A stretch of DNA of 64,000 bases from Candidatus Latescibacterota bacterium (GTDB taxonomy: Bacteria > Latescibacterota > UBA2968 > UBA8231): NCBI GenBank assembly GCA_965215195.1, contig CBDCDC010000001.1:992001-1056000 (forward strand), in the 5' to 3' direction. The position numbers and the translations under genes were made by a program. This document shows positions 6,479-33,105 of the stretch, piece after piece; positions within the stretch are counted from its first letter, which is position 1, and each line of letters begins with the position of its first letter. A model generated the notes under the pieces. That model searched no databases. It was not told where the DNA came from and worked only from the letters and a program-made list of their open reading frames with translations.

Positions 6479-8704
6479 ATGAAACGCATCAGTGTATATG
6501 CTCTCTTAGTGTGCTTGCTCGGGGGCCGGCCGGCCGGTGCTGAAGTCGTGATCGTCGGCGGCGAAGGCGGTTTGGATTGGGCCAGCGGCGGCGGCGAGAT
6601 ACAAGCGACGGTCATCCGCAGCGCGACTTCAGTGGAAAATACCAACGCGCCGGGTGGGGTCATTGACTTTCGTGCCGAGGGCTTCAACAACTGGATCTTT
6701 CCGCAACGCGCCGATACCACACTCAATATCGCTATCGGTGCCAATTCCGAGGCTCGCGGCGGCTCGATCACCTCGCCCAATACCATCAACATTCGGCCGG
6801 AGTTGCCCAATATCATCGACGGCGATGGTGAGACAGCACTGGATTTGCGCGCCAGTGCCGGAGGCCAGAGCGCACGCGTGTTGGGCATTATCATCGATCT
6901 AGACTTAGGTGCCCGTTTCGGGGTTAATCGCTTCAAGTTTTTTCCCCGCAACGCCGACCCGGCGTTCCCCGCTCCGGCGTTCCCATACCAGAACGATTTT
7001 ATGCGCGGCTTCGAGATATTCATCAACGACGGTACGCCCGAGACTCAGCGCGAGGGGGTGCCGATCCGCGAGACCGTAGTGCTGGCCAACCAGAACGAAG
7101 ACCCAGTAGTTGACGCGCATATCCCGCCTCAGTACGTGCGGTTCGTGCGGCTCAAGTCGCTGACGGCGACGGGCTTTGACTTGGCCGAGTTCCAAGTTTT
7201 TGGTACCGGCTTTGTGCCTGAGGCCCTCTATATCTCCAATGTCTTTGACTTCGGCGACCTGTCGCTCTTTGGAACGCTGCGCTGGGTCGAACAGAAGGTG
7301 GGCGATAGCGGACGGTCTCGGGTCTTGATCCGCACCCGCACCGGCAACGACCCGCAGCCGGTCGAGTACAACAAAATTCGCCCAGGCGAGCAGATTTTCC
7401 GCTTGGGTGGTGGGGCTAGCCAGACGGGTACCACGGCCCGCGGCGACGAAGTGCCGTGGAAATTCGCCGCCGACATCGAGGATACCGAGCTACAGACTCT
7501 GGTTGAGACGGTGCTCGATAACGAGGATGTCGACCTGCGCGAGGCGCTCCAGATATTCAAGGATCTGCCGCTGGAGCAGCAGGAGCAGATCTCGCTGACA
7601 GCCACCGACTTCGGCCGGTTGCGCAATGAGGACAAGGGCAATATTCGCAACGATGTGACCAATTGGAGTGCTTGGTCGCCGCCGTATCCAGTCAGTGCGC
7701 TGGTTGACTTGGACGCCGACTTGGCCGACGCATTCCTGGGGGTGCCGGTGGTCTCGCCGAGTCCGCGGCGCTATTTCCAGTTCTCAATTGAGTTCTTTAG
7801 CGACGAATTTGAGTCGGCCACTGGCGTTGGGGGGATTTCCTTTGAGGTACTGCCTTCGCCTTTTGCCGAGGAGTTAATCGCCGAGATCGTCCCGCGCCAA
7901 GCGGCGCTGGGCGAAAAGGCAGACTTTACCCTCGCCGTGTTGAGCAAACTTCGCCCGGGCCTTGACCGCGGTTTCAATCGGCTACAGGTCGATACCCCGC
8001 TCAAGGTCGAAAACGTAGGACTGGTGGAGGTTCGGCACCCAGACGGCACGGCGGATGAGGCCGACTTTAGCGGCGCGGTGCTCGACCAATTGCCGCTCCA
8101 GCGCGGCGATTTTGCAGTGGTTGAGGCTGCCGACAACAGCTTCATCTTTGAGTTCCCAATGGTCGCCGCGGATGGTACCGAGGTGCGGGTAACCTTCGAC
8201 AACGCAGTGCTGCGCTTCGGCACGACCTTTACGACGCGGGCGTTCAATTCGGGCGAGGAAGTGCAGATTGCCCAAGATGTGGTATCGGGCAACGCCGCCG
8301 ATCTGGGGGAAGCCGATCCGGACTTGCAGCCTTTGGGTACTCCTTTCAGTGGGAACCTCTCGGTGGCCGTGCCGATCGTCGGCGACCTACTGGTCAACGT
8401 GCGTGCGGTCCCCGGGGTCTTTAGCCCCAACGGAGACGGCATAAACGACCAAGCTGCGGTTCAGTACGACATCACCAATATTGCTCGACCGACCGATGTA
8501 GAAATCGTGGTGCTCGACTTGGCGGGGCGGCCGGTGCGGAAGCTCTACCGCGGACTCGACAGCAGCGGGCGCCACGCGCATCCTTGGGACGGCAAAAACG
8601 ACGCCGGGGAGGCACTGCCTCCAGGCAATTATCTGTTCAGAGTGACGCTGGATGCTGGCACTGGCCAGGAACGCGGCATCGGCATGGTCAGCTTGGCTTA
8701 TTGA
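6479..8704 (+). CDS. Secreted discoidin-like protein with FlgD/CHU_C-type C-terminal domain (subtype C)
   Basis: Signal peptide; IIDGD...IIIDLDLG...FKFFPR...VRFVRL...LAEFQVFG jelly-roll-like motifs; C-terminal VFSPNGDGIND...DLAGRPV...WDGKND.G...PGNY...SLAY. Confidence 0.75.
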   Translation: MKRISVYALLVCLLGGRPAGAEVVIVGGEGGLDWASGGGEIQATVIRSATSVENTNAPGGVIDFRAEGFNNWIFPQRADTTLNIAIGANSEARGGSITSPNTINIRPELPNIIDGDGETALDLRASAGGQSARVLGIIIDLDLGARFGVNRFKFFPRNADPAFPAPAFPYQNDFMRGFEIFINDGTPETQREGVPIRETVVLANQNEDPVVDAHIPPQYVRFVRLKSLTATGFDLAEFQVFGTGFVPEALYISNVFDFGDLSLFGTLRWVEQKVGDSGRSRVLIRTRTGNDPQPVEYNKIRPGEQIFRLGGGASQTGTTARGDEVPWKFAADIEDTELQTLVETVLDNEDVDLREALQIFKDLPLEQQEQISLTATDFGRLRNEDKGNIRNDVTNWSAWSPPYPVSALVDLDADLADAFLGVPVVSPSPRRYFQFSIEFFSDEFESATGVGGISFEVLPSPFAEELIAEIVPRQAALGEKADFTLAVLSKLRPGLDRGFNRLQVDTPLKVENVGLVEVRHPDGTADEADFSGAVLDQLPLQRGDFAVVEAADNSFIFEFPMVAADGTEVRVTFDNAVLRFGTTFTTRAFNSGEEVQIAQDVVSGNAADLGEADPDLQPLGTPFSGNLSVAVPIVGDLLVNVRAVPGVFSPNGDGINDQAAVQYDITNIARPTDVEIVVLDLAGRPVRKLYRGLDSSGRHAHPWDGKNDAGEALPPGNYLFRVTLDAGTGQERGIGMVSLAY

Positions 8705-8736: not shown

Positions 8737-11541
8737 GTGTTGAAAGCGATGCGGAGTCTTGCAGTGATCGGTGCTTTACTAGGCCTAACCCCGGCGCATG
8801 GGCAGGAGGACTATCAGGCTCGGCTAGGGGTACAGCGGGGTGGTGCTGTCAGTTTTGAGCCTATCGGCCCGGGAGTATTATTTGGCGCACTCGACCCGAC
8901 CGTCAAAAAGTGGTACGTGCCGCAGGAGCTGTACGTGGACTACGGTTGGCGTCAATGGGAATACTCCAACTACGCCCGCACCCCGTATGAGCGCTACGTC
9001 AACACAACCCGCGAGGGTGCTTACTTCTACGATGTGTACGGCAACTTCACCACCCATGGTTGGCTGATCTACGACTGGCGTCAAGACCAGCCGTTGCCCT
9101 TGGGCAGTGGTATCTTCCAAGGTACGCGTTTTAATACTTGGTTCAATGCAGTGACCATCAGCGGTGATTCGCAAGGGCAGTACCACTACGCGATCACGGT
9201 CGGCGACCGGATCCGCACGACCTTGACGCCGATGACCTTTTCCAAGCCGGACTTCAATGGGGTGCAGGTGGATTTTGCCTCAGACAAGTACCAAGCGACG
9301 ATCCTCGCCTCGCGCATCAGCGAGCCGATCCGAGGCTCCTCGCAGGGCCTCGGCGGCAGCACCGAGCCGGTGACCCAGACCAACACGACCTCAATGTTTG
9401 GTGGGCGGGCGACGTTCCAGGTCGGCGACTTCATCACGCTGGGAGCCACGCTAGTTGATGCCCGCAACGCCAATACCACCCTCGATCTCTTCGCTGGCGA
9501 CCTGATCGCTGGCAGCCTCACGGCTGGGCAAAGCACGACCCCCCTAACGGCTATTGCGGTGATCCTCAGCGACGATTCGCCCGCAGACAACGAAGGGGGC
9601 GCAGCCCTGTTTAGCCACGACGTGCGGATCACCAGCCGCGACTTCGACACCGGCAAGGAGACGGTTTCTACCCTGCAGGAGGTGGTCCGCCCCGGTGCGC
9701 AGTGGCCGGTCCTCTTCGGGGGATTTCGGCGGCCGGGCTTTCTGGCCGCGGACGGTCCAGAGCGGATCATCGTCAACTACGACTTCAACGACCCGGCCTA
9801 CGTGGGCCCGGATCCGACGACCATTGTCGCGGTGGACTTCAACTACGTGCTGGCCAACGACTTCAAGGTCGAGATGTGGTCCGACCGCCAGACAGGTCAG
9901 CGGGCGGTCCCGGCGGCCCCGCTGACTAGCGAAGTAATCGACAATAGCCAGCCGGCCTTTGTGGTACTCCGGCGCGCCGAGGGCAATGTAAAAGACATCT
10001 CCAACTTGCAGCGCATCAAGTTCGACTATGGCTTGCCGACAGCCAACCTAATCGGCGGCTTTACTATTGAAGGTGCCGACGCATTTGGCTTCGACTTCTA
10101 CGGCGAGTGGGATCGCAACAAGCGCTATGCTCAGTACCCCAATGCCGCGCTCTTCAACGAGGGGAAGAAACACGCGATCTCCTCCGAGGCATCCGACGCT
10201 TGGCACTTCAATGTCTCGCGCAATGTGTTCCCCTACTTCCTCTACGGCGAGGCCTACGCCATCGATGAAGCCTATTCGACCACCACCTTTCTGGTCAATG
10301 CCAACGGCGACGTGCAATACGACAATAGTCAGCGACACTTCTACGAATTCGTCGATGACAATGACGACCAAGACCGTTTCCCTGACTGGGTTCGCTTCGG
10401 CACGATCAACGACCGGGCAATCTACCCAGGTTGGGACCAGAACAACGACTTCATCTCGGATTTCAACCAGAATGACAACGCCACCGTGGGCAATATCACC
10501 CCCGACTACGAGGAGCCGTTTCTGCGCTACAACGTCGATCGGCCGGAGTTTCTCTTCGGCATTGACCTCAACAACAACAATTGGATCGACCGCTTTGAGG
10601 ACGACGACTTGCCCGATTTCCCTTATAAACCCGATCGGCGGGGGTTTAATGTCTTCGGGGGGGTGCATTTGATGCCGGAGGCTCGGCTGATCGTCGGCCG
10701 CACGGACGAGGAGTCACAGACAACCGACGCGACTAACGTGACCAACTACGCGATGTTCGCCTTCGACAAGAACTATTCGGGCTTGGGACGCCTGCGGGTC
10801 TTCGATATGATCAAGCAGGCTAAGGACACCATACCTGATGCCCGCCGCGAACCTACGCCCTTTGAGGGTGCGCCGATCCAGCCAGTAGTCCGCGATATTC
10901 TTCCGGCGCAGGACACTTGGATCAACACTGCCTTCGTGCAGTTCGACTACAAGGGTATCGAGGGCTTGAACGTGGTCAACAAGCTCAAGTGGGAGACCTT
11001 CAGCCAGAACCAAGCCGAGACTCGCGATGCTAACGGCCGCCTGATGGAGGACGAAGCCAGCTTTTTCGGCTTGATCAACAAGGTTGACTACACCTACGGC
11101 TTGGGGCGTTTGGACTTGCAGCCGAGACTCAAAAGCGAACTTCTGCGCCAGACAGCCTTTCTGGTCGCAGAAGACGATCGCAAGGAATGGACGGCAACGG
11201 CGCAGTTAATAGCGACCTTGCCAGTACTCCGCCACACGATTGTTCAGGCCGGGCTGGAGCAGTTGTGGTTCAGTAACCAGAGCTTGGACGAGGATGCCCT
11301 TATTGCGGCTGGTCGCCAGCAGGAGACGGGCGACCTGAGTTCGACCAATGTCGCCGTACAGATCTCGACCACCTCGGATTATCTGGGCTACCGGCTGACG
11401 ACCCAGATTGGCCTGCGCTACGGCCGGATCTTCACCGAACAGGTGATCGAGGACAGCGACCGTCTGGGTACCTTTGTGATTGGCGATGAGAGCAGCAACG
11501 AGACGACCAGTTTTATTACGGTCTTCGCCGGGCTAGAGTGA
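8737..11541 (+). CDS. Large secreted protein, putative outer-membrane beta-barrel family (copy 1)
   Basis: Signal peptide after GTG 8737 (or ATG 8749); conserved LDPTVKKWYVPQEL N-domain; acidic DDNDDQDRFPD and DLNNNNWIDRFEDDDLPD loops; amphipathic strands ending TSFITVFAGLE. Confidence 0.7.
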   Translation: MLKAMRSLAVIGALLGLTPAHGQEDYQARLGVQRGGAVSFEPIGPGVLFGALDPTVKKWYVPQELYVDYGWRQWEYSNYARTPYERYVNTTREGAYFYDVYGNFTTHGWLIYDWRQDQPLPLGSGIFQGTRFNTWFNAVTISGDSQGQYHYAITVGDRIRTTLTPMTFSKPDFNGVQVDFASDKYQATILASRISEPIRGSSQGLGGSTEPVTQTNTTSMFGGRATFQVGDFITLGATLVDARNANTTLDLFAGDLIAGSLTAGQSTTPLTAIAVILSDDSPADNEGGAALFSHDVRITSRDFDTGKETVSTLQEVVRPGAQWPVLFGGFRRPGFLAADGPERIIVNYDFNDPAYVGPDPTTIVAVDFNYVLANDFKVEMWSDRQTGQRAVPAAPLTSEVIDNSQPAFVVLRRAEGNVKDISNLQRIKFDYGLPTANLIGGFTIEGADAFGFDFYGEWDRNKRYAQYPNAALFNEGKKHAISSEASDAWHFNVSRNVFPYFLYGEAYAIDEAYSTTTFLVNANGDVQYDNSQRHFYEFVDDNDDQDRFPDWVRFGTINDRAIYPGWDQNNDFISDFNQNDNATVGNITPDYEEPFLRYNVDRPEFLFGIDLNNNNWIDRFEDDDLPDFPYKPDRRGFNVFGGVHLMPEARLIVGRTDEESQTTDATNVTNYAMFAFDKNYSGLGRLRVFDMIKQAKDTIPDARREPTPFEGAPIQPVVRDILPAQDTWINTAFVQFDYKGIEGLNVVNKLKWETFSQNQAETRDANGRLMEDEASFFGLINKVDYTYGLGRLDLQPRLKSELLRQTAFLVAEDDRKEWTATAQLIATLPVLRHTIVQAGLEQLWFSNQSLDEDALIAAGRQQETGDLSSTNVAVQISTTSDYLGYRLTTQIGLRYGRIFTEQVIEDSDRLGTFVIGDESSNETTSFITVFAGLE

Positions 11542-11560
11542 TATGAGACGAGGGCGAACG

Positions 11561-14518
11561 ATGTTGAGACGCACGGCGATTTTCGTCGTTCTATCCTTGG
11601 CGCTGGGCGAAGCGAATGCTCAGCGCATGGATTACGGCAACCGCGTGGGGCACCGCGTGGGCGAACAAGTGCGCTACTCCTCGGTCGGCGCAGCGGTCGA
11701 TATGGACGTGTTAGACCCAACGGTCATGCGCTGGTACATGCCGCAGGAGCTCTTCAGCGAATACGGACGTCGCCAATGGAGCTACACCAACTACGCCAGA
11801 GAACCCTACCGCCGCTACCTAGACCGCAATCTCGATGGCAACTACTTTTACGACGCCTATGGGGATTTTATCACCCGCGGCTACGTCATCTACGACTGGC
11901 GCCAGATCCAGCCGCGTACTTTCGAGAGCAGCTCTATCACTAAGACAGGCCGCTACGCGAACTGGTTCAACCGTTTAATTATCACTTCAGACCAAACCAG
12001 CACCTATAGCTACTCAATTATCGTCGGCGACGAGATTCGCACCACGTTGACGCCGATGACCTTCAATAAGGTTGGTTTCAACGGGGTGGTGACCAACTTC
12101 GCGGCGGGTCGCATCCGGGCTACGGGCCTGTTTTCGCGGGTGACCCTGCCCATCATCCATATTGACGCGGATGTGCCGACAGCCTCGTTGGAGAACTTTT
12201 CCAACTTGGCAGCCGGCCGTCTTGAACTTGATGTGGCCGACCAAGCAACCTTGGGGCTGACGTTGGTCAACGTTCACAACGGCAACGGCGTACGCGAAAG
12301 TTTCCAGGGTAACCCACTCAAAGGCCAGTTGACTTCGGGTCAGCTCGACCGCCAATTGAACCTGCTGGTAGTCAGGCTTGCGGATGATTCGCCCGAAGAT
12401 GGTGAAGGCGGTGCGGTGCTCTTCAGCGACGACGTGGAAATCGCCACCACTCTGCTCCGCGAGGTCGCAGTGGGTGACAGCGTACAGCTAGTAGGGCGCG
12501 ATACCACCATCGTCGGTAGCGGCATAGGCTTTCGCCCGGTGCGCGATGGGGGCGAGCTCCGCGACGGCTTTTTGCGCGCCGATGGCGCAGAGAGCATCGT
12601 GCTCAAGTACGTGCTGGCACCCGAGGATGATGCCTCTGAGGAAGGCTCCCTGCGCTTGCTTTTGCAGCAGAGGCTAGGGCTGACTCTGGCAGAGGCCGCC
12701 GACGCGGTCTCCGCGATCAAAAGCGTGAGATTCCGCTTGGTGCTGGCCAACGACTACCGGGTGGAGGTGTCGTCCGATCGCCAGACCAATCGCTCGGGCC
12801 AGCCGCAATTTATTGTCATGGAGCGGGCACCGGGCAATATCAAGAACGAACTCAACCAGCGCGAAGTCGTCATCGACTACGGCCTGCCGACGGCCAGCCA
12901 GATCTTCGGAGCTAGTGCTGAGCTGCGCGACTTTTACGGCTTCGACTTCTACGGCGAGTTCAACGTCAGCAACCAGTACCGGCAATATCCCTCAATCAAC
13001 CGCAAAAAGCACAAGAGTTTCTCGGGCATCGTCGACGACGAGGCCGCACTCGGCTGGATGTTCAACTTGGCGCGGAAGTCCGGTCCGTGGCTGCTCTTTC
13101 TGGAGGGCTTCGGCATGGACGAGATGTATTCTACCAGTGTGCTGCCGGTCGATGGCCGCGGCGTGGCCGACTACTCGCCTCAAGCCACCAACCTGCTCTA
13201 CGATTTAGTCGACGACAACGATGACCACGACCGGCACCCGGACCAATTGCGGATTTTTCAGGGGAGTTTGATCCCGCCGCAGACTACCTCAATCAGCAAC
13301 TTCACGGTGACTTCCGAGGGGGTAGCCGACCCGGCGGTTTTCCCCGGCTACGACGAAAACGGTGATTTTATCTCTGATTTCAACCAGAACGGCAATGGCG
13401 ACACGGAGAATCTTTTTCCCGACTACGAAGAGCCTTTCCTGCGCTATCACTCGGACCGACCAGAGTTCCTCTTTGGCATTGACTTGAACAACAACGGATG
13501 GGCCGAGCGCTTTGAAAACGACGATTTGCCCGACTATCCCTATAAGAAGGACCACTGGGGCTACAACGCCTACGCCCGAGTCCAAGTCAATCCAAAGGTG
13601 CGCCTGACGGGCGGTTTCCTCTATCAGGATCAGCGCGAAACCGATCGCCGCAATGAGACGGCCTATGGAATTTTGACCTATCAGCAGACTTGGCCCACTT
13701 GGGGCTCCTTGCGGGTCTATGACATGCTAAAAAGGGCTGAGGATACCATCCCCGACCCGCTCTCGCAGTGGATCCTACCCGAGCTAGAGTTGGGTAGTGT
13801 CGTCGAAGAAGTCAGTGGGCGCAACGTCTCGGTACCCGACCTTTTGGCCGCTGAGGACACTTGGATCAATACGTTCTATGCAGACTGGGAGTATAATAGC
13901 CCGCGACGCTGGGCCACGCGGCACCGCTTCAAGTGGGATTGGTGGCACCAGCGCAACGCGGACGCGGTCTTCTCCCTCGACGAGACCGGGGAGAGGATTC
14001 TCGATGTGGAGGGGGATCCGGTGGTGCTTTTCGACCCGCTCGGTCCCGAAGGGCGCAATGGCCGTAAGACCGCGGGCTTCATTGGGCTAATCGACAAAAT
14101 TAGCTACGCCTTTAACTGGCGACGGCTGTGGCTTTCACCTAGGTTCAAAAGCGAATTTCTACGCCAAGTGCCATTTAACCGCGACTTGGCTAAGCGGCGC
14201 TCTTGGGACGCCTTGTGGTCGTTCTTGGTGCGCTTTCCGCTCTTAGTGCGCTCCAGTGTTGACCTCGGCGTTGAACAGCGCCAGTTCTACAATCTCATAG
14301 CCGACGAGGATAAACTGGCAGCAGGGGAGCGAACCGGAGACTTCAGAGGCACGGTCTTGGCCGTGCAATTAACCAATCGCAGGGATTACTTGGGCTACGA
14401 ACTTACTGCCCAGCTCGGCCTGCGCTACGACCGACGTGCGCTCGAAGTTGTCGATGGTGACGCTGAGACGCGCACGGCGGGGCTGGCCTTCCTTTCGGTT
14501 TTCGCCAGTCTGAGGTAG
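11561..14518 (+). CDS. Large secreted protein, putative outer-membrane beta-barrel family (copy 2)
   Basis: Paralogous to the 8737 gene along its length (LDPTVMRWYMPQEL, RTTLTPMTF, PDYEEPFLRY..DRPEFLFGIDLNNN); ends AFLSVFASLR. GAGG precedes ATG 11561 (alternative start 11543). Confidence 0.7.
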   Translation: MLRRTAIFVVLSLALGEANAQRMDYGNRVGHRVGEQVRYSSVGAAVDMDVLDPTVMRWYMPQELFSEYGRRQWSYTNYAREPYRRYLDRNLDGNYFYDAYGDFITRGYVIYDWRQIQPRTFESSSITKTGRYANWFNRLIITSDQTSTYSYSIIVGDEIRTTLTPMTFNKVGFNGVVTNFAAGRIRATGLFSRVTLPIIHIDADVPTASLENFSNLAAGRLELDVADQATLGLTLVNVHNGNGVRESFQGNPLKGQLTSGQLDRQLNLLVVRLADDSPEDGEGGAVLFSDDVEIATTLLREVAVGDSVQLVGRDTTIVGSGIGFRPVRDGGELRDGFLRADGAESIVLKYVLAPEDDASEEGSLRLLLQQRLGLTLAEAADAVSAIKSVRFRLVLANDYRVEVSSDRQTNRSGQPQFIVMERAPGNIKNELNQREVVIDYGLPTASQIFGASAELRDFYGFDFYGEFNVSNQYRQYPSINRKKHKSFSGIVDDEAALGWMFNLARKSGPWLLFLEGFGMDEMYSTSVLPVDGRGVADYSPQATNLLYDLVDDNDDHDRHPDQLRIFQGSLIPPQTTSISNFTVTSEGVADPAVFPGYDENGDFISDFNQNGNGDTENLFPDYEEPFLRYHSDRPEFLFGIDLNNNGWAERFENDDLPDYPYKKDHWGYNAYARVQVNPKVRLTGGFLYQDQRETDRRNETAYGILTYQQTWPTWGSLRVYDMLKRAEDTIPDPLSQWILPELELGSVVEEVSGRNVSVPDLLAAEDTWINTFYADWEYNSPRRWATRHRFKWDWWHQRNADAVFSLDETGERILDVEGDPVVLFDPLGPEGRNGRKTAGFIGLIDKISYAFNWRRLWLSPRFKSEFLRQVPFNRDLAKRRSWDALWSFLVRFPLLVRSSVDLGVEQRQFYNLIADEDKLAAGERTGDFRGTVLAVQLTNRRDYLGYELTAQLGLRYDRRALEVVDGDAETRTAGLAFLSVFASLR

Positions 14519-17354: not shown

Positions 17355-17382
17355 GCGCGAACAACTAGCAGTTTTACTAATT

Positions 17383-19393: not shown

Positions 19394-19395
19394 GG

Positions 19396-21330: not shown

Positions 21331-21333
21331 AAG

Positions 21334-23944: not shown

Positions 23945-26557
23945 ATGATGAATCGATCTTTGGCCCTGGCCGTGCTGATCGCTGGCACTGCGTTAGCCCA
24001 ATCGGGATACCAGATAACCGCGAATCAAGTGGTGGTTGACAGTCGCGCTCACTGGCAAAACTGGAATTTTCCGCCAGGGGTGCTGGAACTGGGAAGTACC
24101 GGGACGGTGCAACCCCGGAGTCTGCGGCGCGATATTAACGCTGTCGGCGACATTGTCGCCAACTTGCGTGCGCGTCCACCTGAGGGTCTAAAGAAAACGC
24201 CAGAAGCCATCGTCCTCGCCGACGCCATACTAGGTGGTGCCCGCTCCAATGTCGCTGGCGTGGAAAACCTTTTCGACGGTGATATAACTACCTATTGGGA
24301 ACCTGACCCACCAACCGAGGCGCTGGATCTGAGCACTCAGTGGTGGTTTATCGTCGATTTGGGGCGCTTGGTGATGGCCAAGAAGATCGTGCTCAAGTTC
24401 GTCGCCGAAGAGTTGGGCGATCCCTTCTTACAATTCGACCTCTTGGCCTCGCAGGGCAATATTCCTAAAGGCAACCAGCGTTCACCCACCCCCGAGTTTA
24501 CCACCATCCTCCGCACGTTAAAACCCAACAAGGAACAGCGGGTTTTCGAACTGGTCACCAACTCAGAGCCAACCTTTGCCGGCACCGGGATGCGCTTCTT
24601 GCAGATCATAATTACCGGCAGTGACTTCGACCGCGGGCGGGAAGTGATCTTGGAACAATACGAGGCTCTGCCGACGAGCGACCAGGGGGCCATTGAGTTT
24701 TACAAAAAGCAGGCCGATGGCAGCGAGACCGTGGTGTCGCCGGAAATTTACGAGTTGCTAACAGCCGAGCAGCAAGGACCGATCCGCTACTTCCAGCGCG
24801 AGCGCCCGCGATTGGCCGAATTGGAAGTCTGGGCAGAGGGCGACGAGATTCTCACCGGAGCCTTGGCCCGCGGTGGGTTTGGCACTGCGACGCAAACCGC
24901 GGCGATCAACAACCTGATCGATGGCCAAATCGAGAGCAAGGTCCAGTTTCTCTATTCTTTCGGTCGCGGCTCGTTCAAGGATCCGGAAGGCATCGTCTTT
25001 TTTGACTTGGGGGCGTTTTACTGGATCGATGCTTTTCGCATGGCCTACGGTGGCTCAACGTTTCGGGATTACCGGCTCGATTTTTCCGACGGCAGCCTCG
25101 AAGCCGACGGCAGCCTTAAGTGGACTACGGCGGGGACGCGCCAGACCTCCTCCCCTACAGCGGTGGGGTCGAAGTGGGAAAGCGAGACTAATCTCAGATT
25201 CGGAGCCTACGAGGGTAACGATTTTGAGCGGATAAAAGCGCGCTTCTTTCGCTTGGTGTGGGAGCAGGTCGAAAGCGCCACGGCTCGCGGTGGGGCTACC
25301 GGCCAGCCGGCGGAGATCCAGCTTTACGGTCGGGGGTATCACCCGGAGGTGGTGCTGATCTCCAATTTGATCCGCTTGGGGGCCAGCCGCAATCTGCTGT
25401 CGATTGCTTGGGACGCTGATACGCCGCCGGGGACCAGCGTAGTTTTGCAGACCCGCACCGGCAACGAACTTGATGAGGTACTGCGCTACTTCAAAAAGGA
25501 CGGTACAGAAGTCACCGAGGCCGAGTACAACAAATTGTTGTCGATTTTTCGCGGTGACACTGTCGGCGAGGAGGTCGCCGGTGGGGACTGGAGTGACTGG
25601 AGTGCGCCCTACGAAGTGGCTGCGGGCAGTCCGATTAGTTCGCCATCGCCGCGGGCGTACTTGGAGGTGCGGGCGGTGTTGCGGTCGGACATGCCCGATT
25701 ACAGCGCGACGCTGCGATCGCTGCGATTGGATTTCACCAATCCGGTCGCGCAGGGGCTATTGGGCGAAGTGACCCCCTTTGCGGTGGAGCAGCTGGGGCA
25801 GCCGCAGCGATTTTCGCTCTACGTGCGCCCAGAGTTTGCCACTGGCGATCCGGGGTTTGATCAGTTGTTAGTAGTAGCCCCGTCGGATATGCGCTTGGCG
25901 TTTGAAGGGGTATATGGCGGTCCGGCGGCGGCACTGGCCACCGACGTAGGAGCCGATTGGGCCTTGGACGGAGCGGAAGTCGTCCCCACCGCCGGCGATA
26001 GTTTGCAAGTGGCGTTTTCGGAGATAGGCCCATCCTCGGAGGTGGAGGTGGTGCGGCTGGATTTTTCGACGGCCTTGTTTTCGACCGGAGCAGTATTGCA
26101 GGCATCGTTGCAGCACAGTGTTGAGGGAGAGGGGGGCTGGCAGCGGGTGGATCCGGGCGAGGCAGTAGAAGCCATTGCCAGCAACACGACGACGCTGGTG
26201 GGGGCGGTGCAGGAGGGTGCCTTGGTGCAGGCGGTGAAAGTAGAGCCGCGAGTGGTTACGCCCAATGGCGACGGGGTCAACGACGAGGTGGGGTTTCGCT
26301 TCCAGGTGGTCAAGGTGGACGGAGCCAGTCCGGTGGAGGTGTTGATCTACGATGTGCGGGGGCGGCGAATGCGGCGCTTAGTCGAGCATCGTCCGGCGAG
26401 CACGGGGATCTACGAGATGGAGTGGGACGGTCGGGATAAGCAGGGGACGGTGGTGGTACCGGGAGTCTATCTGGTACGGGTGCGAGTCGATACCGATATC
26501 GAGGGGGCCCACATTGCACACGCCGAAATCCTACGTACTATCGCCGTTGCCTACTAG
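23945..26557 (+). CDS. Secreted protein with two discoidin-like domains and FlgD/CHU_C-type CTD (subtype B, copy 2)
   Basis: GAGG RBS before ATG 23945; close paralog of 21334; ends RTIAVAY. Confidence 0.8.
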   Translation: MMNRSLALAVLIAGTALAQSGYQITANQVVVDSRAHWQNWNFPPGVLELGSTGTVQPRSLRRDINAVGDIVANLRARPPEGLKKTPEAIVLADAILGGARSNVAGVENLFDGDITTYWEPDPPTEALDLSTQWWFIVDLGRLVMAKKIVLKFVAEELGDPFLQFDLLASQGNIPKGNQRSPTPEFTTILRTLKPNKEQRVFELVTNSEPTFAGTGMRFLQIIITGSDFDRGREVILEQYEALPTSDQGAIEFYKKQADGSETVVSPEIYELLTAEQQGPIRYFQRERPRLAELEVWAEGDEILTGALARGGFGTATQTAAINNLIDGQIESKVQFLYSFGRGSFKDPEGIVFFDLGAFYWIDAFRMAYGGSTFRDYRLDFSDGSLEADGSLKWTTAGTRQTSSPTAVGSKWESETNLRFGAYEGNDFERIKARFFRLVWEQVESATARGGATGQPAEIQLYGRGYHPEVVLISNLIRLGASRNLLSIAWDADTPPGTSVVLQTRTGNELDEVLRYFKKDGTEVTEAEYNKLLSIFRGDTVGEEVAGGDWSDWSAPYEVAAGSPISSPSPRAYLEVRAVLRSDMPDYSATLRSLRLDFTNPVAQGLLGEVTPFAVEQLGQPQRFSLYVRPEFATGDPGFDQLLVVAPSDMRLAFEGVYGGPAAALATDVGADWALDGAEVVPTAGDSLQVAFSEIGPSSEVEVVRLDFSTALFSTGAVLQASLQHSVEGEGGWQRVDPGEAVEAIASNTTTLVGAVQEGALVQAVKVEPRVVTPNGDGVNDEVGFRFQVVKVDGASPVEVLIYDVRGRRMRRLVEHRPASTGIYEMEWDGRDKQGTVVVPGVYLVRVRVDTDIEGAHIAHAEILRTIAVAY

Positions 26558-26584: not shown

Positions 26585-28546
26585 ATGCGAGTGTCGCTGG
26601 TTCTACTGGCCCTCGGTTTCCTCTGGAGCCAAGCGCCGGCACTGACGATTTATCGGATTGGTGGCCAGAGCCTGCCTCCGCCCGAGCTAGACGCCCCCTA
26701 CGAATTCGTGTCGTTGTCTTGGGCCGATGCCGACGAGGCTCGCGATGGCCGGATCGAGTTAGTCGAGGTAGGGGCCGACTTCATTCGCCCGCAGCGTCTA
26801 GATCCCGCTGTCAACATCGCGCCGCAGATCTACGAATTGGACGGTGGCAAAGTCTTCGTCATGCACTCGCACACCGGCTGGACCGAGAACTTAGAGGAAG
26901 ACGACGTCTTCATCTTCGATGGCGACCCCGAAACCGTCTATTTGGGCGATGGCCACTGGCCTTGGGGGTCCATTTTCTTTGGCGGACGCTCCCTCGATGA
27001 GAGCTGGGGCAAGGGACGATGGATCTACACCAAGGTCTGGATCTTCGACCTCGGCGGCCTATTCACCCTCCAGCGCATCCGCTTTTTCCCTCGCGAAAAA
27101 TTCGCCAACGAGCGTTTCGTCCAGCGATTTAGAGTCGGCACCAGCGATGGCGACCCCCTCAAGGATGGCACCCGCGAGCACACGATCATGCACCGGGGCT
27201 TTTTTTTCGACTTCGACATTGCCTATGACGTCAAGGAAAATTCGAGCGGGGTGGTAGAACTGGCGATGCCCTCCGAGCCGGTCCAGCGCCTGCTGTTTGA
27301 CGCCCCGGAAAATTCGAGTGGGATTTGGGAACTAGCCGAGTTTGAAATATACGGCTTCGGCTTCACCACCGAGGCCACCTACCGCTCGAGCGTCATCGAC
27401 CTCGGCGAAGCGGTCGCACTGGGTGCCGTTACCTGGTCGGGGAGGCAGGATCCAGAGGCCGCCATCGAGCTGCGGACGCGCAGCGGCGACAGCGCCGACC
27501 CGAACAACTACTGGCGCTTCACGTTCAGGGGCGACGAGAAGTCTCTCTTCGACCAACAAGGGAGGCCGCTCACCCGGCAAAGCTATGCCAAACTCAACAG
27601 GGGAGAGAAGGCGGGGATTACCTATGATACCCGCAACTGGGACTCGTGGAGTCCCGCCTATGACTTCAGCACCGGGGCGGGAGATATACAGGTGGACAAA
27701 CCGCGGCGCTACGTGCAGTTTAGTGCCGACTTCCACTCAACCCGCGACCAAGGTAGTCAGCTTGACTACGTGCAGTTTGCCGTGTCGGACCCGCCTATTG
27801 CAACCCAAGTCCTAGCGGAAATCACGCCGAATGCGGTACAGGCGGGCGAGCCGGCGGCGTTTACCTATGCGTTGACCCCGGTGTTTAATCTCCGGGATTT
27901 GGGCTTCGATTCGATTGAAATCGATACCCCGAGCCTGCCCGATGGGGTGGACGCGGTGCGGATCAGCGGCGAGGAGGTGGGGTTTGAGATCCGGCGGCTG
28001 GACGAGCGAGGCTTTGAATTGGGGATTCCCCGGATTGACGCGACGCGGACCGGCGAGCGGATCGAGGTCGATTTCCGCGCCGAGATATTCCAGTTCGGGA
28101 CGCTTTTTGCCGGGCGGGTCTTCGATAGCGAGAAACCGCACGAAGTGAGGCAGGCGCTGACGGCCGGCGATGCGAATCCCCTACTAGATGGCAACCGCTT
28201 AAGCGTGGACATTCTGGATTTGGAACAAAAGAGCATCAAGAGGCTGCGCGTACAGGCCAGCGTCTTCACTCCCAACGGCGACGGGGTTAACGATGTGGTC
28301 GCGATTGAGTGCGACTTGCTGAACGTAGAGGCCGCGCCCGTGGTAATCCACATATTTGATTTGGCGGGGCGCGAGATCGGCCGAATCGACAGCGGAGAGC
28401 AGGTCAGCGGGCGGTTTAGGGCGACGTGGGACGGGCGTGCTGCCGATGATCGACTCGCGTCGCCGGGGACGTATCTGTTGCGGCTCATTGTGGAGACGGA
28501 TGAGGGGGCCGATCGGGCGCAACGGGTCGTCGGCGTGGCCTATTAA
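26585..28546 (+). CDS. Secreted discoidin-like protein with FlgD/CHU_C-type CTD (subtype A, copy 3)
   Basis: GGAGG RBS; LTIYRIG; long aromatic loop after LGDGH; VFTPNGDGVND...GVAY. Confidence 0.8.
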   Translation: MRVSLVLLALGFLWSQAPALTIYRIGGQSLPPPELDAPYEFVSLSWADADEARDGRIELVEVGADFIRPQRLDPAVNIAPQIYELDGGKVFVMHSHTGWTENLEEDDVFIFDGDPETVYLGDGHWPWGSIFFGGRSLDESWGKGRWIYTKVWIFDLGGLFTLQRIRFFPREKFANERFVQRFRVGTSDGDPLKDGTREHTIMHRGFFFDFDIAYDVKENSSGVVELAMPSEPVQRLLFDAPENSSGIWELAEFEIYGFGFTTEATYRSSVIDLGEAVALGAVTWSGRQDPEAAIELRTRSGDSADPNNYWRFTFRGDEKSLFDQQGRPLTRQSYAKLNRGEKAGITYDTRNWDSWSPAYDFSTGAGDIQVDKPRRYVQFSADFHSTRDQGSQLDYVQFAVSDPPIATQVLAEITPNAVQAGEPAAFTYALTPVFNLRDLGFDSIEIDTPSLPDGVDAVRISGEEVGFEIRRLDERGFELGIPRIDATRTGERIEVDFRAEIFQFGTLFAGRVFDSEKPHEVRQALTAGDANPLLDGNRLSVDILDLEQKSIKRLRVQASVFTPNGDGVNDVVAIECDLLNVEAAPVVIHIFDLAGREIGRIDSGEQVSGRFRATWDGRAADDRLASPGTYLLRLIVETDEGADRAQRVVGVAY

Positions 28547-28556: not shown

Positions 28557-30488
28557 ATGAAGCACGTAGCGGTATGGTTTGGATTGTGGCTGTTCATTAG
28601 CGGTCCTCTCGACGCACTGACGATCTACCGGCTCGGGGGCAGCGATTTGCCGATCCCGGAGTTAGCGGCGATTGAGGGGGTAGAGTTCGTGCAGCTAGCG
28701 TGGGCTGACATTGACGAAGATCGGCACGGCCAGACCAACCTAATCGAAGTAGCCCCCAACTACATCGCGCCGCGTCAACTTGACCCGGCGGTCAACCTGA
28801 CGCCGCTTTTGCCCCAGCCTGACTTCCTCGGCGATATTCTCTACCTGACTTGGATCGGCTGGGGTGGTCCCGATGTCGATGACTGGTTTATTTGGGACGA
28901 GGATCCCAATACGGCCTATCTGGGCGATGGCCACTTCGCCCAGCATGGCCCCAGACACAAAAGTCTAATTTTCGACCTCGGCGGTCTGTTTTTTCTCGAG
29001 CGAATCAAGTTCTACCCCCGTGAAAGACACCTCCACGACCGCTTTGTGGAAAGCTTCACTATCGGCACCAGCGACGGCGATCCGCTCAAAGATCCCTATC
29101 GAGAATTGCAGGCCGGCGTGGGGGGGTTCGGCAGGGGGTCTGTCTTCGCCTTTGACGTGCTCTACGATATCAGGGAAAATACCGATCCCATCATTGAGCT
29201 AGAACTGCCCGCGGAACCCGTGCAGAAGGTGCTCTTCCGGGCACCGGAGAACACGCGGGGCATATGGGAGTTGGCCGAACTCGAACTCTACGGCGCTGGT
29301 TTTGCCCCCTTTGCCGGCTATCGGAGCAATGTCATTGATATGGGCCGGGCGGTGTCTCTGGGCGAACTGAACTGGTCGGGTGCGGTTGAGCCGGGTGCCC
29401 GCGTCGCCTTAACTACGCGCAGCGGCGACACGCCTACGCCCAATATCTACTGGCGCTTTACTTTTCGCGGCGATGAGCAGAGCCGCTTCGACACTCAGGG
29501 TCGGGCATTGACGCACAAAGCCTATAACAAGCTCAACAAGGGCGAGCGGGCCGGGATCACGCCCGATACCCAGCACTGGGAAGCTTGGAGCCAAGCATAC
29601 GATTTTGCGACTAGCGCGGGGGCGATGCAGGCGGACCAGCCCCGGCGCTACGTGCAACTGCGTGCCGATTTTGAATCGCTCAAGGAGGCGGGTGGGCGGC
29701 TGGACTATGTACAGTTCGGCGTTTCGGACCCGCCGGTGGCCACCCAAGCGCTGGCTGAGATCGCCCCGGCGCTGGTTAAAGCGGGTGAGGTATCTTCCTT
29801 TACCTATGCGATATTGCCCCGGTTTGAAGAGGACGATCTGGGGTTTGACACCATTGAGATTGAGACGCCTGTGCAGGTGACGAATGTTGACGCAGCGCGC
29901 ATTAGCGGGATGGAGGTCGGCTTTGACGTCCTGCGCTCGGACGCAAAGGGCTTTGCGTTGCGCATCCCGCGCATGGATTTGCAGCGCACCGAAGAGCTGG
30001 TTGAGGTGGACTTTCAGGTAAAAGTGTTCAAGTTCGGCACGATGTTCGCCGGCCGAGTGTCGGATAGCGAAAGACCCTTTGAAGTGCGGCAGAGGCTCAC
30101 TGCGGGCGATGCCGACCCATTGGTCGAGAGCAATGCGCTGAGCGTGGGTTTGGTTGAGTTGCAACGCAAGGCGGCCAACGCGCTTGAGCTAGCCTCGCCA
30201 GTGTTCACGCCCAATGGCGACGGAGTCAACGACGAATTGCAGATAGAATATGAACTGTTGAATCTCTTGGGAGCGGTGCCAATCGCGCTGGATCTGTACG
30301 ATTTGTCGGGCCATCGTTTGGGGGAAGTGTATCGCGGCGCGGCGCAGAGCGGCCGATTTCACTTGGAGTGGGGTGGGGTGTTAGCGAGTGGGGAGCGGGT
30401 AGTGCCGGGGTGCTACCTACTGCGCCTAAAGGTGACCAGCGACCAAGGCGGAGAAATCCTCCAGCGCGTCATCGCACTGGCTTATTAG
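28557..30488 (+). CDS. Secreted discoidin-like protein with FlgD/CHU_C-type CTD (subtype A, copy 4)
   Basis: AAGGA RBS, ATG 28557 (MKHVAVWF); LTIYRLG; N-half very similar to 19396; ends RVIALAY. Confidence 0.8.
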   Translation: MKHVAVWFGLWLFISGPLDALTIYRLGGSDLPIPELAAIEGVEFVQLAWADIDEDRHGQTNLIEVAPNYIAPRQLDPAVNLTPLLPQPDFLGDILYLTWIGWGGPDVDDWFIWDEDPNTAYLGDGHFAQHGPRHKSLIFDLGGLFFLERIKFYPRERHLHDRFVESFTIGTSDGDPLKDPYRELQAGVGGFGRGSVFAFDVLYDIRENTDPIIELELPAEPVQKVLFRAPENTRGIWELAELELYGAGFAPFAGYRSNVIDMGRAVSLGELNWSGAVEPGARVALTTRSGDTPTPNIYWRFTFRGDEQSRFDTQGRALTHKAYNKLNKGERAGITPDTQHWEAWSQAYDFATSAGAMQADQPRRYVQLRADFESLKEAGGRLDYVQFGVSDPPVATQALAEIAPALVKAGEVSSFTYAILPRFEEDDLGFDTIEIETPVQVTNVDAARISGMEVGFDVLRSDAKGFALRIPRMDLQRTEELVEVDFQVKVFKFGTMFAGRVSDSERPFEVRQRLTAGDADPLVESNALSVGLVELQRKAANALELASPVFTPNGDGVNDELQIEYELLNLLGAVPIALDLYDLSGHRLGEVYRGAAQSGRFHLEWGGVLASGERVVPGCYLLRLKVTSDQGGEILQRVIALAY

Positions 30489-30501: not shown

Positions 30502-33105
30502 ATGAAGACCATTTGGACTTTTGCCTGCGCCTTGCTGCTGGGCACGATGTGCGCCGAGGCTCAGGGAGTGGGTCATCGCGTCACCGCTGACCAAGTCGTA
30601 GTCAATAGTCAGCAGCACTGGCAGAACTGGTCCTTCGGGTCGGGCACTCTAGACATCGGACCCAGCGGCGAAGTCCGGCCACGGCGGCTGCACAAGAATA
30701 TCAATGCCGTGGAGAATGCCCTCGAATTCCTGCGCCTGAATCCTCCCAATTACATTAAAAAAGATGCGGCAGATATCGAACTCAGCGACGGAATCCGCGC
30801 CGGCTCCAATGCTCCGGGCGTACTGGCCCTCTTTGACGGCGATATGGAGACCTATTGGGAACCCGACGTACTCAACCGAGGTATCGACTTGGCGACGCAG
30901 TGGTGGTTTATCGTCGATCTGGGCCGCTTCGTCATGGCCCGCAAGATCGTGCTCAAATTTGTCGATGAAGCACTGGGCGACCCCTTCCTGCAGTTTGATG
31001 TACTAGTCTCGGAAGGCCGCCAGCCCAAAGGCAACAGCCGTTCGCAAACGCCTGAATTTAGCCGGGTGGCGCGCACCTTGGTGCCCAACAAGCAACAGCG
31101 GCTCTTTGAGATCGAACTGGAATCCGCAGAAGAGTTTGCGGGCATGGGCCTGCGCTTCGTTCAGGTGATCGTGACCGGCAGCGACTTTGCCCAAGGTCGG
31201 GAGATCAGCCGCGACGAGTACGAGGCCCTGCCAGAAGCAGACCGGGGAGCGATTCTCTACCACAAGCGGCTGCCAAACGGCAATGAGGCCGCGGTCAAAA
31301 AGGAGGTCTATGACCAACTCGAAGCATCGCGGCAAGGCCCCGTGCGCTATTTCGTGCGCGAAAGGCCGCGCCTAGCCGAACTGGAAGTGTGGGCCGAGGG
31401 CGACGAAATCCTGATAAATACGGTTGAGCGCGGGGGCGTAGTCACCTCGACCCAGTCCTTGGCGCTGGCGAGCCTGTTCGATGGCGATGTACTCAGTTTC
31501 AGCGAGGTGATTTTTATCTTCTCTCCTGGGCAATTAAAGGAACCAGAGGGCGAGGTGTTTTTCGATATGGGGGCCTCGTTCTGGATCGACGCTTTCCGCA
31601 TGGCCTTGGGAGCGCGCCAGCGAAATTTCGAGGGTTATAGACTGGATTTCTCCAATGGTGAGCGCGAGGCAGACGGTAGCCTCAAGTGGACTCCCGCGGC
31701 CGCGGTGAGTGGTGCGGAAGTCCTCGGTCGCAGCGTGATTGGCACCCGAAGCGTAATGGGCAACAACTTTAGCCCCCTAAGGGCACGTTTTTTTCGCTTC
31801 GTGTGGAATCAGATTGTGCGCGGGGTAGGCAATAGCGGTGCGGCCATTCTGGCCGATCCGTCCGAGTTGCAACTCTACGGGGAAGGGTTTATGTCGGAAG
31901 TAAGCCTGACTTCGGATCTGGTGCGGCTGGGCGGCAGACGCAACTTGGTCTCAATCGAATGGGACGCGGATGTGCCGCCGGGCACGAGTGTGCTGGTGCA
32001 GACGCGTACCGGCAACGAGCTAGCGGAGCATCTGCGCTATTTCAAAAAAGACGGCACCGAAGTGAGCAAAGATCAGTACGACAAGCTGCTCTCGATATTC
32101 AAGGGGGATATTGTCGCCGAGGAAGTAGTAGGTGGGGATTGGAGCGACTGGAGTCAGCCTAGCGAAGACCCTAGTGGCAGTCCGATTACTTCGCCGTCGC
32201 CGCGCGAGTTCCTAGAGATCCGGGCGACCCTACTATCGGACGATCCTTCAGTGAGCGCGACTTTGCGCTCGGTCTGGCTCAACTTCACTCATCCCGTGGT
32301 GCAGAGCTTGGTGGGAGAGTTGGAACCGACGATGGTAGAGACGCTGGGGAAAGAGCAGGACTTTTCGCTCTTCGTGCGGCCGAACTTCGACCTCCGCGAT
32401 CCCGGCTTCAACGAGTTCCTGCTGGTGGTACCAGCGGATATGACGCTTGAGTTCAACGGTCTATATGCCGGTGCAGACGAGGGGCTGGCTGGCCGCGATA
32501 TGGACGGAGTAGCGGTGGCCGATGTCGAGGTTGTAGCGACGGGCGGCGATAGCCTGCGATTGGCCTTTCCGCTGATCGGCCCAGAGTCGGGGGTGGAGCT
32601 GTTGCGACTGGATTTCACCACGGCGCTTTTTTCGGCCGGAGCAGTGCTGAAGGCGTCGCTGCAGAATAGCACCTCGGAGGAATGGGATTGGCAGCGGGCG
32701 GACCCAGGTGACGCAGTAGAGGCAGTACTCAGCAACACCATGACCTTGAGGGGCGCAATGCAGAGCCGATCACTGCTAGGGGACGTGGTGATGCCAGAGA
32801 TCTTTACCCCAAACGGGGATGGGGTCAACGACCAAGCGTCGTTCCACTTTAAGGTAATCAAGGTAGGCGACGATAGTCCGGTAGAGGTGCTGATCTACGA
32901 TTTGAGCGGTCGACTAGTGAGGCAGTTGGTTGAGCAGCGCGGGGTGAGTACGGGGGTGTACGGAATTGTGTGGGATGGTCGGGGTGAGTCGGGTGCGGTG
33001 GTCGCACCGGGAGTATATGTGGTGCGCCTGCGGGTGGATACCGACACCCAAGGGGTACGCATCGGGGCTGGGGAGGTCTTGCATACTATTGCTATCGCCT
33101 ACTGA
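30502..33105 (+). CDS. Secreted protein with two discoidin-like domains and FlgD/CHU_C-type CTD (subtype B, copy 3)
   Basis: QVVVNSQQHWQNWSF; FDGDMETYWEP; IFTPNGDGVND...AIAY. Confidence 0.8.
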   Translation: MKTIWTFACALLLGTMCAEAQGVGHRVTADQVVVNSQQHWQNWSFGSGTLDIGPSGEVRPRRLHKNINAVENALEFLRLNPPNYIKKDAADIELSDGIRAGSNAPGVLALFDGDMETYWEPDVLNRGIDLATQWWFIVDLGRFVMARKIVLKFVDEALGDPFLQFDVLVSEGRQPKGNSRSQTPEFSRVARTLVPNKQQRLFEIELESAEEFAGMGLRFVQVIVTGSDFAQGREISRDEYEALPEADRGAILYHKRLPNGNEAAVKKEVYDQLEASRQGPVRYFVRERPRLAELEVWAEGDEILINTVERGGVVTSTQSLALASLFDGDVLSFSEVIFIFSPGQLKEPEGEVFFDMGASFWIDAFRMALGARQRNFEGYRLDFSNGEREADGSLKWTPAAAVSGAEVLGRSVIGTRSVMGNNFSPLRARFFRFVWNQIVRGVGNSGAAILADPSELQLYGEGFMSEVSLTSDLVRLGGRRNLVSIEWDADVPPGTSVLVQTRTGNELAEHLRYFKKDGTEVSKDQYDKLLSIFKGDIVAEEVVGGDWSDWSQPSEDPSGSPITSPSPREFLEIRATLLSDDPSVSATLRSVWLNFTHPVVQSLVGELEPTMVETLGKEQDFSLFVRPNFDLRDPGFNEFLLVVPADMTLEFNGLYAGADEGLAGRDMDGVAVADVEVVATGGDSLRLAFPLIGPESGVELLRLDFTTALFSAGAVLKASLQNSTSEEWDWQRADPGDAVEAVLSNTMTLRGAMQSRSLLGDVVMPEIFTPNGDGVNDQASFHFKVIKVGDDSPVEVLIYDLSGRLVRQLVEQRGVSTGVYGIVWDGRGESGAVVAPGVYVVRLRVDTDTQGVRIGAGEVLHTIAIAY

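Follow-up and report, generated by a model that had tools for sequence, protein, structure and literature searches.

The Latescibacterota are uncultured, widespread bacteria that are thought to degrade polymers. In the genome of one of them (Candidatus Latescibacterota bacterium; 6.13 Mb in two contigs, 95% complete, 8.5% contamination), the window analysed here, a stretch of 64,000 nucleotides (G000:C1:992001-1056000) numbered from its first letter, contains a run of long open reading frames (ORFs) from 6473 to 34694 that all lie on the + strand, and the question raised by this block is what kind of system its genes encode. An initial annotation had described eight paralogous proteins, two large proteins, a membrane protein with tetratricopeptide repeats (TPR) and a CBM9-like protein, an account with which the ORF calls agree, and had taken them for a new secretion or anchoring system with unrecognised components that displays a variable repertoire of binding proteins. 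The block belongs to an operon family that occupies ~37 loci in this genome, among which it is an enlarged copy. Judged from sequence, the new part is this operon family, arranged around an unannotated family of large proteins here called BAR, and not a secretion system. The reading preferred here, to which a probability of about 0.5 is assigned, is that the operons specify a surface complex resembling those of polysaccharide-utilisation loci (PULs), in which CBM32-like lectins delivered through a type IX secretion system (T9SS) would act together with a CBM9-like protein and a large outer-membrane BAR protein served by a dedicated SurA-like chaperone. The putative lectins are the paralogues, which share a W..WS core and are referred to as CORE proteins.

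A repeated operon family in one genome and its phylum

A BAR profile (A1) matched 53 ORFs at 37 loci in the genome, which also contains 128 ORFs with the W..WS core, 43 genes for the CBM9-like protein (cbm9L) and 41 genes for the SurA-like chaperone; together, these four families comprise 265 genes and 541,761 bp, corresponding to 8.83% of the genome. A BAR gene is located within 10 kb of 102 of the 128 CORE genes, as compared with 16% of 5000 random positions, and 48/53 BAR genes lie within 10 kb, and 32/53 within 200 nt, of a CORE gene. In contrast, only seven of the 88 genes encoding proteins with a type-A-like C-terminal domain (CTD) are found within 10 kb of a BAR gene. The cbm9L and SurA-like genes occur within the same distance at 30 and 29 of the 37 BAR loci, respectively. 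The recurring order is cbm9L, a gene for a lipoprotein of ~250 amino acids (aa), two to three CORE genes of differing length and one to three BAR genes, followed by the gene of a SurA-like protein (~555 aa), genes of TPR and FG-GAP/ASPIC proteins, or both; a polytopic membrane protein with periplasmic TPR is also encoded in many copies of the operon. Support for the CBM9 label is weak: five members, combined in a profile, matched the PDB entries 1i82 (T. maritima Xyn10A CBM9; E = 4e-5) and 7nwn (E = 1e-3), one of the five members matched Pfam CBM9_1 (PF06452) at 5.6e-5, and the copy in the window had no Pfam match.

The same association is found beyond this genome. Homologues of BAR2, one of the two BAR proteins in the window, number 934 in a set of 5.8 billion proteins, none of them named or carrying a Pfam domain, and BAR has 1069 cluster representatives at E ≤ 1e-3 in a library of 1.84 billion; the database names of the CORE and BAR relatives are all “hypothetical protein”. 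The best 80 BAR loci all originate from metagenome-assembled genomes titled Latescibacterota or Gemmatimonadota. A CORE gene is present within 10 kb in 77 of these 80 loci, the other three being contigs of 7.6-10.9 kb, and cbm9L is present in 59. Among 151 sampled Latescibacterota genomes, BAR was detected in 94 and a CORE profile without the CTD (A7) also in 94; 92 genomes had both and 55 had neither, G032 and G044 had only BAR, and G030 and G042 had only CORE. All 64 genomes of the family to which the host belongs have BAR and CORE, and two families of the same class have neither (0/30 and 0/18 for both). These genomes are related, and the pattern represents a few gains or losses rather than 151 independent trials. 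The data support a lineage-specific operon family, apparently restricted to Latescibacterota. In this respect the initial annotation, which had proposed a lineage-specific system and looked to the joint occurrence of the large proteins and the CTD proteins, agrees with the counts in the host genome, in other genomes and across the phylum.

C-terminal domains and the route of export

The CORE proteins span 590-1100 aa and are composed of a signal peptide, one or more CBM32/discoidin-like modules, a middle part with the conserved W..WS, a region resembling Ig domains and a type-B-like CTD. All eight paralogues of the block are rows of a 28-member CORE alignment (A4), and the alignment of the eight has invariant columns at R300, G302, W353, W356, S357, P374 and R375, as well as at P564-N565-G566-D567-G568-x-N570-D571; the R.G...W..WS...PR core and the PNGDGxND motif of the CTD, as first described, are invariant in 8/8. 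A single-protein Pfam scan, which covered five of the eight (the C-type protein, the A-type proteins of the ORFs at 17426 and 26585 and the B-type proteins at 21334 and 30502), identified FlgD_ig and CHU_C at the C-terminus of all five, with 38.5 and 31.1 bits, respectively, in the C-type protein. F5/8C matches were weak in both scanned B-type proteins (17-23 bits, below the cut-off) and above the cut-off in a B-type CORE protein of another locus, L017 (42.4 and 43.3 bits). Within the 28-member set, F5/8C (PF00754 or PF22633) was matched by 14 members at E ≤ 1e-3, and the CORE profile matches the CBM32 entry 4a41.

A hidden Markov model (HMM) of the window CTDs found 215 ORFs in the genome, which fall into two classes, 127 with the W..WS core and 88 without it. 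An FTPNGDG motif is present in 79/127 CORE tails as compared with 0/88 of the other CTD proteins, and Y is the C-terminal residue of 120/127 CORE tails; the 88 other tails contain “NPFNP” near their start and a basic C-terminus, with the PNGDG motif in 0/88. CHU_C was matched by 25/28 CORE members at E ≤ 1e-3 and FlgD_ig, with about equal scores, by 23/28, and none of the four families matched by CORE members is a type-A model. The type-A model TIGR04183 was passed by six of seven sampled non-CORE CTD proteins, and the seventh, which is encoded beside a divergent BAR gene, matched neither model. Candidates resembling CHU_C number from tens to hundreds in BAR-positive genomes, as compared with zero to five weak matches in BAR-less families. 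These observations suggest that the CORE tails are type-B-like T9SS signals, a resemblance that had been recognised at the outset. The genome also contains tandem arrays of mutually very similar ~710-735-aa proteins with type-A CTDs that are unlinked to BAR (G000:C2:459243-469190 and C2:2146081-2191329).

No SprA, PorV or PorP gene was identified in the window with Pfam and NCBIfam models, as had been noted initially. Outside the window, however, SprA was found with 499 bits, or 606 bits when summed with neighbouring same-frame matches, PorU was found with 629 bits, and an adjoining PorV gene scored 58 bits with PF19572 (cut-off 27) and 148 bits with NF033710 (below the cut-off of 250). Since SprA, PorU and PorV are encoded in the genome and the CTDs are type-B-like, the ordinary T9SS translocon is the economical export route, and the CORE proteins are most likely exported through it. 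The proposal of an independent secretion system, with BAR as its translocon, would be consistent with the lack of T9SS genes in the window and with the large size and unassigned family of BAR. This proposal is nevertheless improbable in the extreme: the three T9SS components are encoded outside the window, T9SS signal models recognise the CTDs, and one translocon gene for every two to three cargo genes, repeated 37 times, is unlike the organisation of known secretion systems.

Type-B CTD cargo is reported to be paired with an outer-membrane shuttle or anchor of the PorP/SprF type, as in SprB-SprF and PG1035-PorP (PMC9143113, PMC12618676). The PorP-like genes found beside BAR in three related loci, described below, tie these loci to the type-B cargo/PorP-like shuttle systems of Bacteroidota. 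One alternative is pure anchoring, in which BAR would be the matching outer-membrane partner that receives or shuttles the type-B-like CTDs, in place of the PorP/SprF-like barrels of Bacteroidota and with no transport function. The confinement of BAR linkage to proteins with type-B-like rather than type-A-like CTDs is consistent with such a role, as is the lack of a PorP-like gene in the window, in 36 of the 37 BAR loci of the genome and in 80/80 related loci. Curated PorP/SprF models gave no match in the host genome and 0/64 in its family (f1), as compared with 25/30 genomes of a BAR-less sister family (f2), and they also matched four BAR-positive genomes of other families; a further family, f3, lacks both BAR and PorP.

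Other findings argue against pure anchoring. A PorP-like gene coexists with BAR at L132 in G031, where the order is CORE, PorP-like (306 aa), BAR; at L135 in G001, where it is CORE, PorP-like (346 aa), BAR, BAR, BAR; and at L133 in G035, where the PorP-like gene is about 1 kb downstream of a BAR gene. The PorP-like proteins of these three genomes score 24-26 bits with PF11751 (cut-off 22.3). In the host genome, a PorP-like ORF of 286 aa (L136; only 12.8 bits with PF11751) is flanked by the gene of a CTD protein and by a divergent BAR gene, and lies 37 nt upstream of the latter; G009 has two PorP-like genes with no BAR gene in the 18 kb of sequence covered. A phylum-specific HMM, built from four Latescibacterota PorP-like proteins, identified 11 ORFs in the host genome, PorV and L136 among them, and the apparent absence of PorP is therefore partly a matter of model sensitivity. 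In view of this HMM result and of the PorP-like genes inside BAR loci, the complementary distribution of PorP and BAR (0/64 in f1, 25/30 in f2) was dropped as strong evidence. BAR is, moreover, three times the size of PorP and has no homology to it. Because PorP-like genes occur inside BAR loci, BAR would be an additional component that is able to coexist with a PorP-like barrel and not simply its replacement. Pure anchoring by BAR is accordingly regarded as rather unlikely, and the CTD receptor in most loci could be either BAR or a PorP/PorV-like barrel encoded elsewhere.

What the BAR protein may be

BAR1 and BAR2 of the window share 39% identity. An N-terminal hydrophobic stretch is present in 51/53 BAR proteins of the genome and an internal transmembrane-like helix in 0/53. 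No Pfam or NCBIfam family was matched by any of 29 A1 members at E ≤ 0.1, the only hits being chance matches of E 0.14-0.3 in three single members, and the BAR profile had no match among PDB sequences at E ≤ 1. Longer proteins with BAR as a fused part were not found; apparent CORE-BAR fusions in G079 and G095 were rejected as overlapping spurious frames in GC-rich DNA. Two family assignments were likewise rejected: BAR is not a TonB-dependent transporter (TBDT), as it has no Plug or receptor domain and the 21 Plug genes of the genome lie elsewhere, and it is not PorP/SprF (PF11751, TIGR03519), to which no model match was obtained. The ESM Atlas model of the BAR homologue P0120 has a predicted template-modelling score (pTM) of 0.78, and its 30 nearest models are all without a Pfam family. 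By language-model features, the closest cluster with a Pfam name is that of DUF6029, a TonB-receptor-like barrel (0.89), which serves as a lead only. Scoring of period-2 hydrophobicity failed to tell barrels from soluble beta-proteins, and mean-field direct coupling analysis (301 sequences, effective number 210; 898 columns with a reduced alphabet, and the last 338 columns with the full alphabet) yielded signals of gaps, phylogeny or noise only and no strand ladders.

We therefore treat the barrel as an inference drawn mainly from three features: a SurA-like chaperone private to the loci, a signal peptide that no CTD accompanies, and the weak lead from the Atlas. SurA is established as a chaperone of outer-membrane proteins, and a dedicated SurA-like gene at the loci argues against the alternative that BAR is a soluble enzyme or structural protein, periplasmic or secreted, possibly able to bind Ca2+ and co-regulated with the lectin-like cargo, in which case the operon would be a catabolic or matrix-building cluster. 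Also at odds with a soluble BAR are the barrel nature of the sole Pfam-named cluster near it by language-model features and its signal peptide without a CTD, whereas the secreted proteins of this genome use CTDs (215 CTD ORFs). The alternative draws on long invariant acidic motifs in BAR (DDNDD.DR.PD; D.N.DFISDFNQN; PDYEEPFLRY; IDLNNNGW.DRFENDD), which by reading, with no tool applied, resemble EF-hand-type loops, and on the lack of both a terminal aromatic residue and any likeness to the barrel families compared. On balance, a soluble BAR is considered quite unlikely.

Under the preferred reading of a PUL-like surface complex, the CORE proteins would be exported by Sec and then pass the outer membrane through the T9SS of the genome (SprA/PorU/PorV), and would be kept on the surface by their type-B-like CTDs, bound either to BAR itself or to a small barrel of the PorP/PorV type. 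BAR would be a large outer-membrane protein that folds with the aid of the SurA-like chaperone of its own locus, and CORE and BAR would form a ligand-capture complex, probably for glycans. The 37 loci would supply different ligand specificities and could be functionally analogous to the PULs of Bacteroidota. A bolder version, which is possible but doubtful, is that BAR represents a new giant TonB-independent class of outer-membrane proteins that forms, with the lectins, a CBM9-like cap and the private chaperone, a modular nutrient-capture or uptake machine peculiar to Latescibacterota, an independently evolved equivalent of SusC/D PULs present as tens of loci in each genome.

Several results weigh against the preferred reading. 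The annotated loci showed no glycoside hydrolase, no lyase and no TonB-type element, and a role in nutrient uptake therefore rests on analogy only. The C-terminus of BAR is conserved as F.TV[YF]AGL followed by zero to four residues, and the terminal residue is not aromatic. In hhalign comparisons of BAR with 20 TBDTs, DUF5916, DUF6029, SprA and PorV-like proteins of the same genome and with the four Latescibacterota PorP-like proteins, the probabilities were 0.3% for TBDT, 0.2% for DUF5916, 0.2% for DUF6029, 1.8% for SprA, 1.1% for PorV-like and 0.15% for PorP-like; known barrel families, however, failed to match each other in the same test, and these nulls thus exclude family membership but not a barrel fold. 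The same values for PorP-like, PorV-like and SprA (0.15-1.8%), together with the lack of Pfam/NCBIfam matches, indicate that BAR is not one of the known T9SS components compared, a point on which the initial annotation had hinged. Regarding the signals, CHU_C (PF13585) scored 31.1 and 31.5 bits in two window paralogues, above the cut-off of 27, and 25.8-26.2 bits, just under it, in several others, and TIGR04131 reached at most 25.4 bits on the window CTDs against a cut-off of 35. Finally, the models of the T9SS motor, GldM (TIGR03517, PF12081) and GldL (TIGR03513), found no match in the genome in a search run without a positive-control genome.

The undetected motor bears equally on a further alternative, an adhesion or gliding apparatus in which the CORE proteins would be SprB-like mobile adhesins and BAR part of the track or anchor. 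SprB is described as the classic type-B CTD protein paired with SprF (PMC9143113), and the lectin-like modules of CORE would suit an adhesin. At 590-1100 aa, however, the CORE proteins are not giant repetitive adhesins, and 37 loci with three subunit types fit substrate diversity better. A gliding apparatus is thus held to be very unlikely.

The enlarged locus, its neighbours and its place among known systems

The window locus starts with a SurA-like gene that is divergent from the rest (4552..6237, - strand) and encodes a periplasmic chaperone with two PPIC-type peptidyl-prolyl isomerase domains (Pfam: Rotamase_2, 77 bits; Rotamase, 67.5 bits; SurA_N_3, 22 bits, below the cut-off of 27). On the + strand, to which all of the following block genes belong, it continues with the C-type CORE paralogue (6473..8704; 743 aa), in which Pfam and alignment delineate a signal peptide, a discoidin-like module, the W..WS core and a type-B-like CTD. 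Next are BAR1 (8749..11541; ~930 aa), which has a signal peptide, no CTD and no Pfam or NCBIfam match, and BAR2 (11543..14518; 991 aa), assigned by homologue and profile searches. A polytopic membrane protein of 580 aa (14532..16274) then combines a His-rich N-terminal domain with C-terminal TPR, only the latter being recognised by Pfam; its N-terminal domain has three copies in the genome and no Pfam match, and with so few copies the gene was rejected as a core component. The secreted CBM9-like protein, cbm9L (16428..17354; about 310 aa), recognised by alignment and profile, has the conserved C-terminus TAVE.SWG.IKA.F.

Seven tandem CORE genes follow: A-type paralogue 1 (17468..19393, the likely start in an ORF that opens at 17426), A-type paralogue 2 (19390..21330), B-type paralogue 1 with an extra N-terminal discoidin-like module (21334..23934), B-type paralogue 2 (23945..26557; ORF from 23897), A-type paralogue 3 (26585..28546), A-type paralogue 4 (28557..30488; ORF from 28356) and B-type paralogue 3 (30502..33105), all identified by alignment and, for A-type paralogues 1 and 3 and B-type paralogues 1 and 3, also by Pfam. 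An FG-GAP/VCBS repeat protein (33108..34694; FG-GAP_3, 105.8 bits) closes the co-directional block. When start codons are set at the signal peptides, the intergenic gaps of the array measure -4 to 27 nt. The order of the paralogues is therefore C and then A, A, B, B, A, A, B, with tandem amplification of A (four copies) and B (three copies). A second, ordinary locus lies at the end of the window (58897..64000, +), with CORE genes at 58897-60906 and 60854-63253 and a BAR gene that runs from 63298 past the window edge.

Two congeners retain the gene succession C, BAR1, BAR2, membrane+TPR, cbm9L, A, A, B, B, A, A, B and FG-GAP, and in both of them all seven members of the array are matched one to one, and in the same sequence, by orthologues; a single additional B copy and an insertion of 4.8 kb are present in one of the two. 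Compared by domain, the paralogues share 53-77% identity within a type and 17-36% between types, the CTD being the most conserved. This conserved order and identity pattern point to A and B subunits that were amplified in tandem long ago rather than to a rapidly varying cassette. Of the repertoire of binding proteins initially envisaged, the multiple lectin-like paralogues are retained, whereas the notion that they are variable or fast-changing is contradicted by the one-to-one orthologues. The 113-nt gap that separates cbm9L from the first A paralogue (17355-17467) contains a perfect, GC-rich stem-loop of 18-19 bp with a T-rich tail (17382..17420, +; -35.8 kcal/mol), which resembles a terminator or attenuator and includes an AGGAGG-like string in its 5′ arm. 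It is kept in the two congeners with one compensatory pair, and a search of the window against Rfam found no family. The stem-loop may function as an attenuator, or it may divide the block between two transcription units.

Other loci of the family differ from the window copy in several respects. In canonical loci the ~250-aa lipoprotein, which has a lipobox followed by GRYF and no Pfam match, is encoded between cbm9L and the first CORE gene (- strand; L016 13378-14151, L018 14049-14771, L019 13516-14274), and the window locus lacks this gene. Four loci, L104-L107 (G000:C2:3447837, 3301427, 4398426 and 2228964), have directly 3′ of BAR, where the window locus has its membrane+TPR gene, a gene for a PMT_2 (GT-C glycosyltransferase-like) domain with 8-10 transmembrane helices and C-terminal TPR. 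In a 1405-aa frame at L109 (G000:C2:753584-757801, -), a complete CORE-type protein, with F5/8C and with CHU_C at residues 699-777, is continued by a His-rich membrane domain and TPR of the window type. The join takes the place of the final CTD residues and of the start of the membrane protein, and the frame is either a genuine fusion or the product of a small deletion or assembly fault. The PMT_2+TPR neighbours and the L109 frame hint at periplasmic handling, perhaps glycosylation, of the locus products. At L019, a DUF6785+DUF6784 membrane protein (2188-4143, -) is encoded directly after BAR, beside divergent genes for an oligopeptide-type permease of the ATP-binding cassette (ABC) class. The genome contains 86 FG-GAP and 111 TPR ORFs, which flank (≤10 kb) 21 and 27 of the 37 BAR loci, respectively. 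FG-GAP_3+UnbV_ASPIC proteins, often paired with TPR, are encoded in the window at 1398-3023 (-), 35534-37363 (-) and 38369-40306 (+).

Just downstream of the block, the window encodes an FGE-sulfatase-family protein of 266 aa (34691-35491, -) and a GT87 glycosyltransferase (37188-38540, +). Further on, a sugar-type ABC transporter, with genes for a binding protein (42960-43964), an ATPase (43968-45476) and a permease (52127-53086), is interrupted between ATPase and permease by genes for a 1766-aa AAA-domain protein and a 423-aa protein without a family (45533-52101). The GC content of the interrupting stretch is 0.52-0.55, as compared with about 0.60, and it may be an inserted element.

Three known systems invite comparison. 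As in the type-B cargo and PorP/SprF pairs of the T9SS, CHU_C-like cargo is genetically linked to the gene of an outer-membrane partner, whose location is putative here; the genome also has type-A cargo without such linkage, and a Pfam-positive PorP-like gene stands beside BAR in three related loci, adjacent to cargo in two. The BAR loci differ from these pairs in that the partner in 36/37 loci is a ~900-aa protein unlike PorP/SprF, that each locus has two to three distinct cargo subunits together with CBM9-like and SurA-like proteins, over 37 loci, and that the host lies outside Bacteroidota and has no detected GldL/M motor. The PULs of Bacteroidota combine a SusC-like TonB-dependent transporter with SusD/E/F-like surface glycan-binding proteins. 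The operon family described here is possibly the counterpart of PULs in this phylum, an analogy suggested by the many paralogous loci, the pairing of a ~900-1000-aa signal-peptide protein with putatively surface-exposed CBM proteins and the 8.8% of the genome devoted to them. It differs from PULs in that BAR has no Plug or TonB-receptor domain and the binding proteins are T9SS cargo and not lipoproteins, and in that no glycoside hydrolases, hybrid two-component regulators or extracytoplasmic-function (ECF) regulators were seen in the annotated loci. In CBM9_1+DUF5916 proteins, a CBM9-like domain is fused to a large predicted barrel. Here, too, a large non-TonB protein is accompanied by a CBM9-like module, and the genome has four DUF5916 proteins, but cbm9L and BAR are separate genes and BAR shows no profile similarity to DUF5916. 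A literature search found no paper linking Latescibacter* with T9SS or type IX secretion, and, judged by the listing, the papers on Latescibacter* and polysaccharide utilisation loci apparently include none on this operon system.

The BAR family, despite its 1069 cluster representatives, has no name, Pfam model or solved relative. On a modest reading, the analysis brings out new protein families, four or five in number, together with a clear pair of CTD classes, of which the type-A class is unlinked to BAR and the type-B-like class is linked to it. If the preferred reading is true, type-B cargo of the T9SS can form multi-subunit outer-membrane machines outside Bacteroidota, and if the loci are equivalents of PULs, the substrate range of the phylum would be predictable from its genomes.

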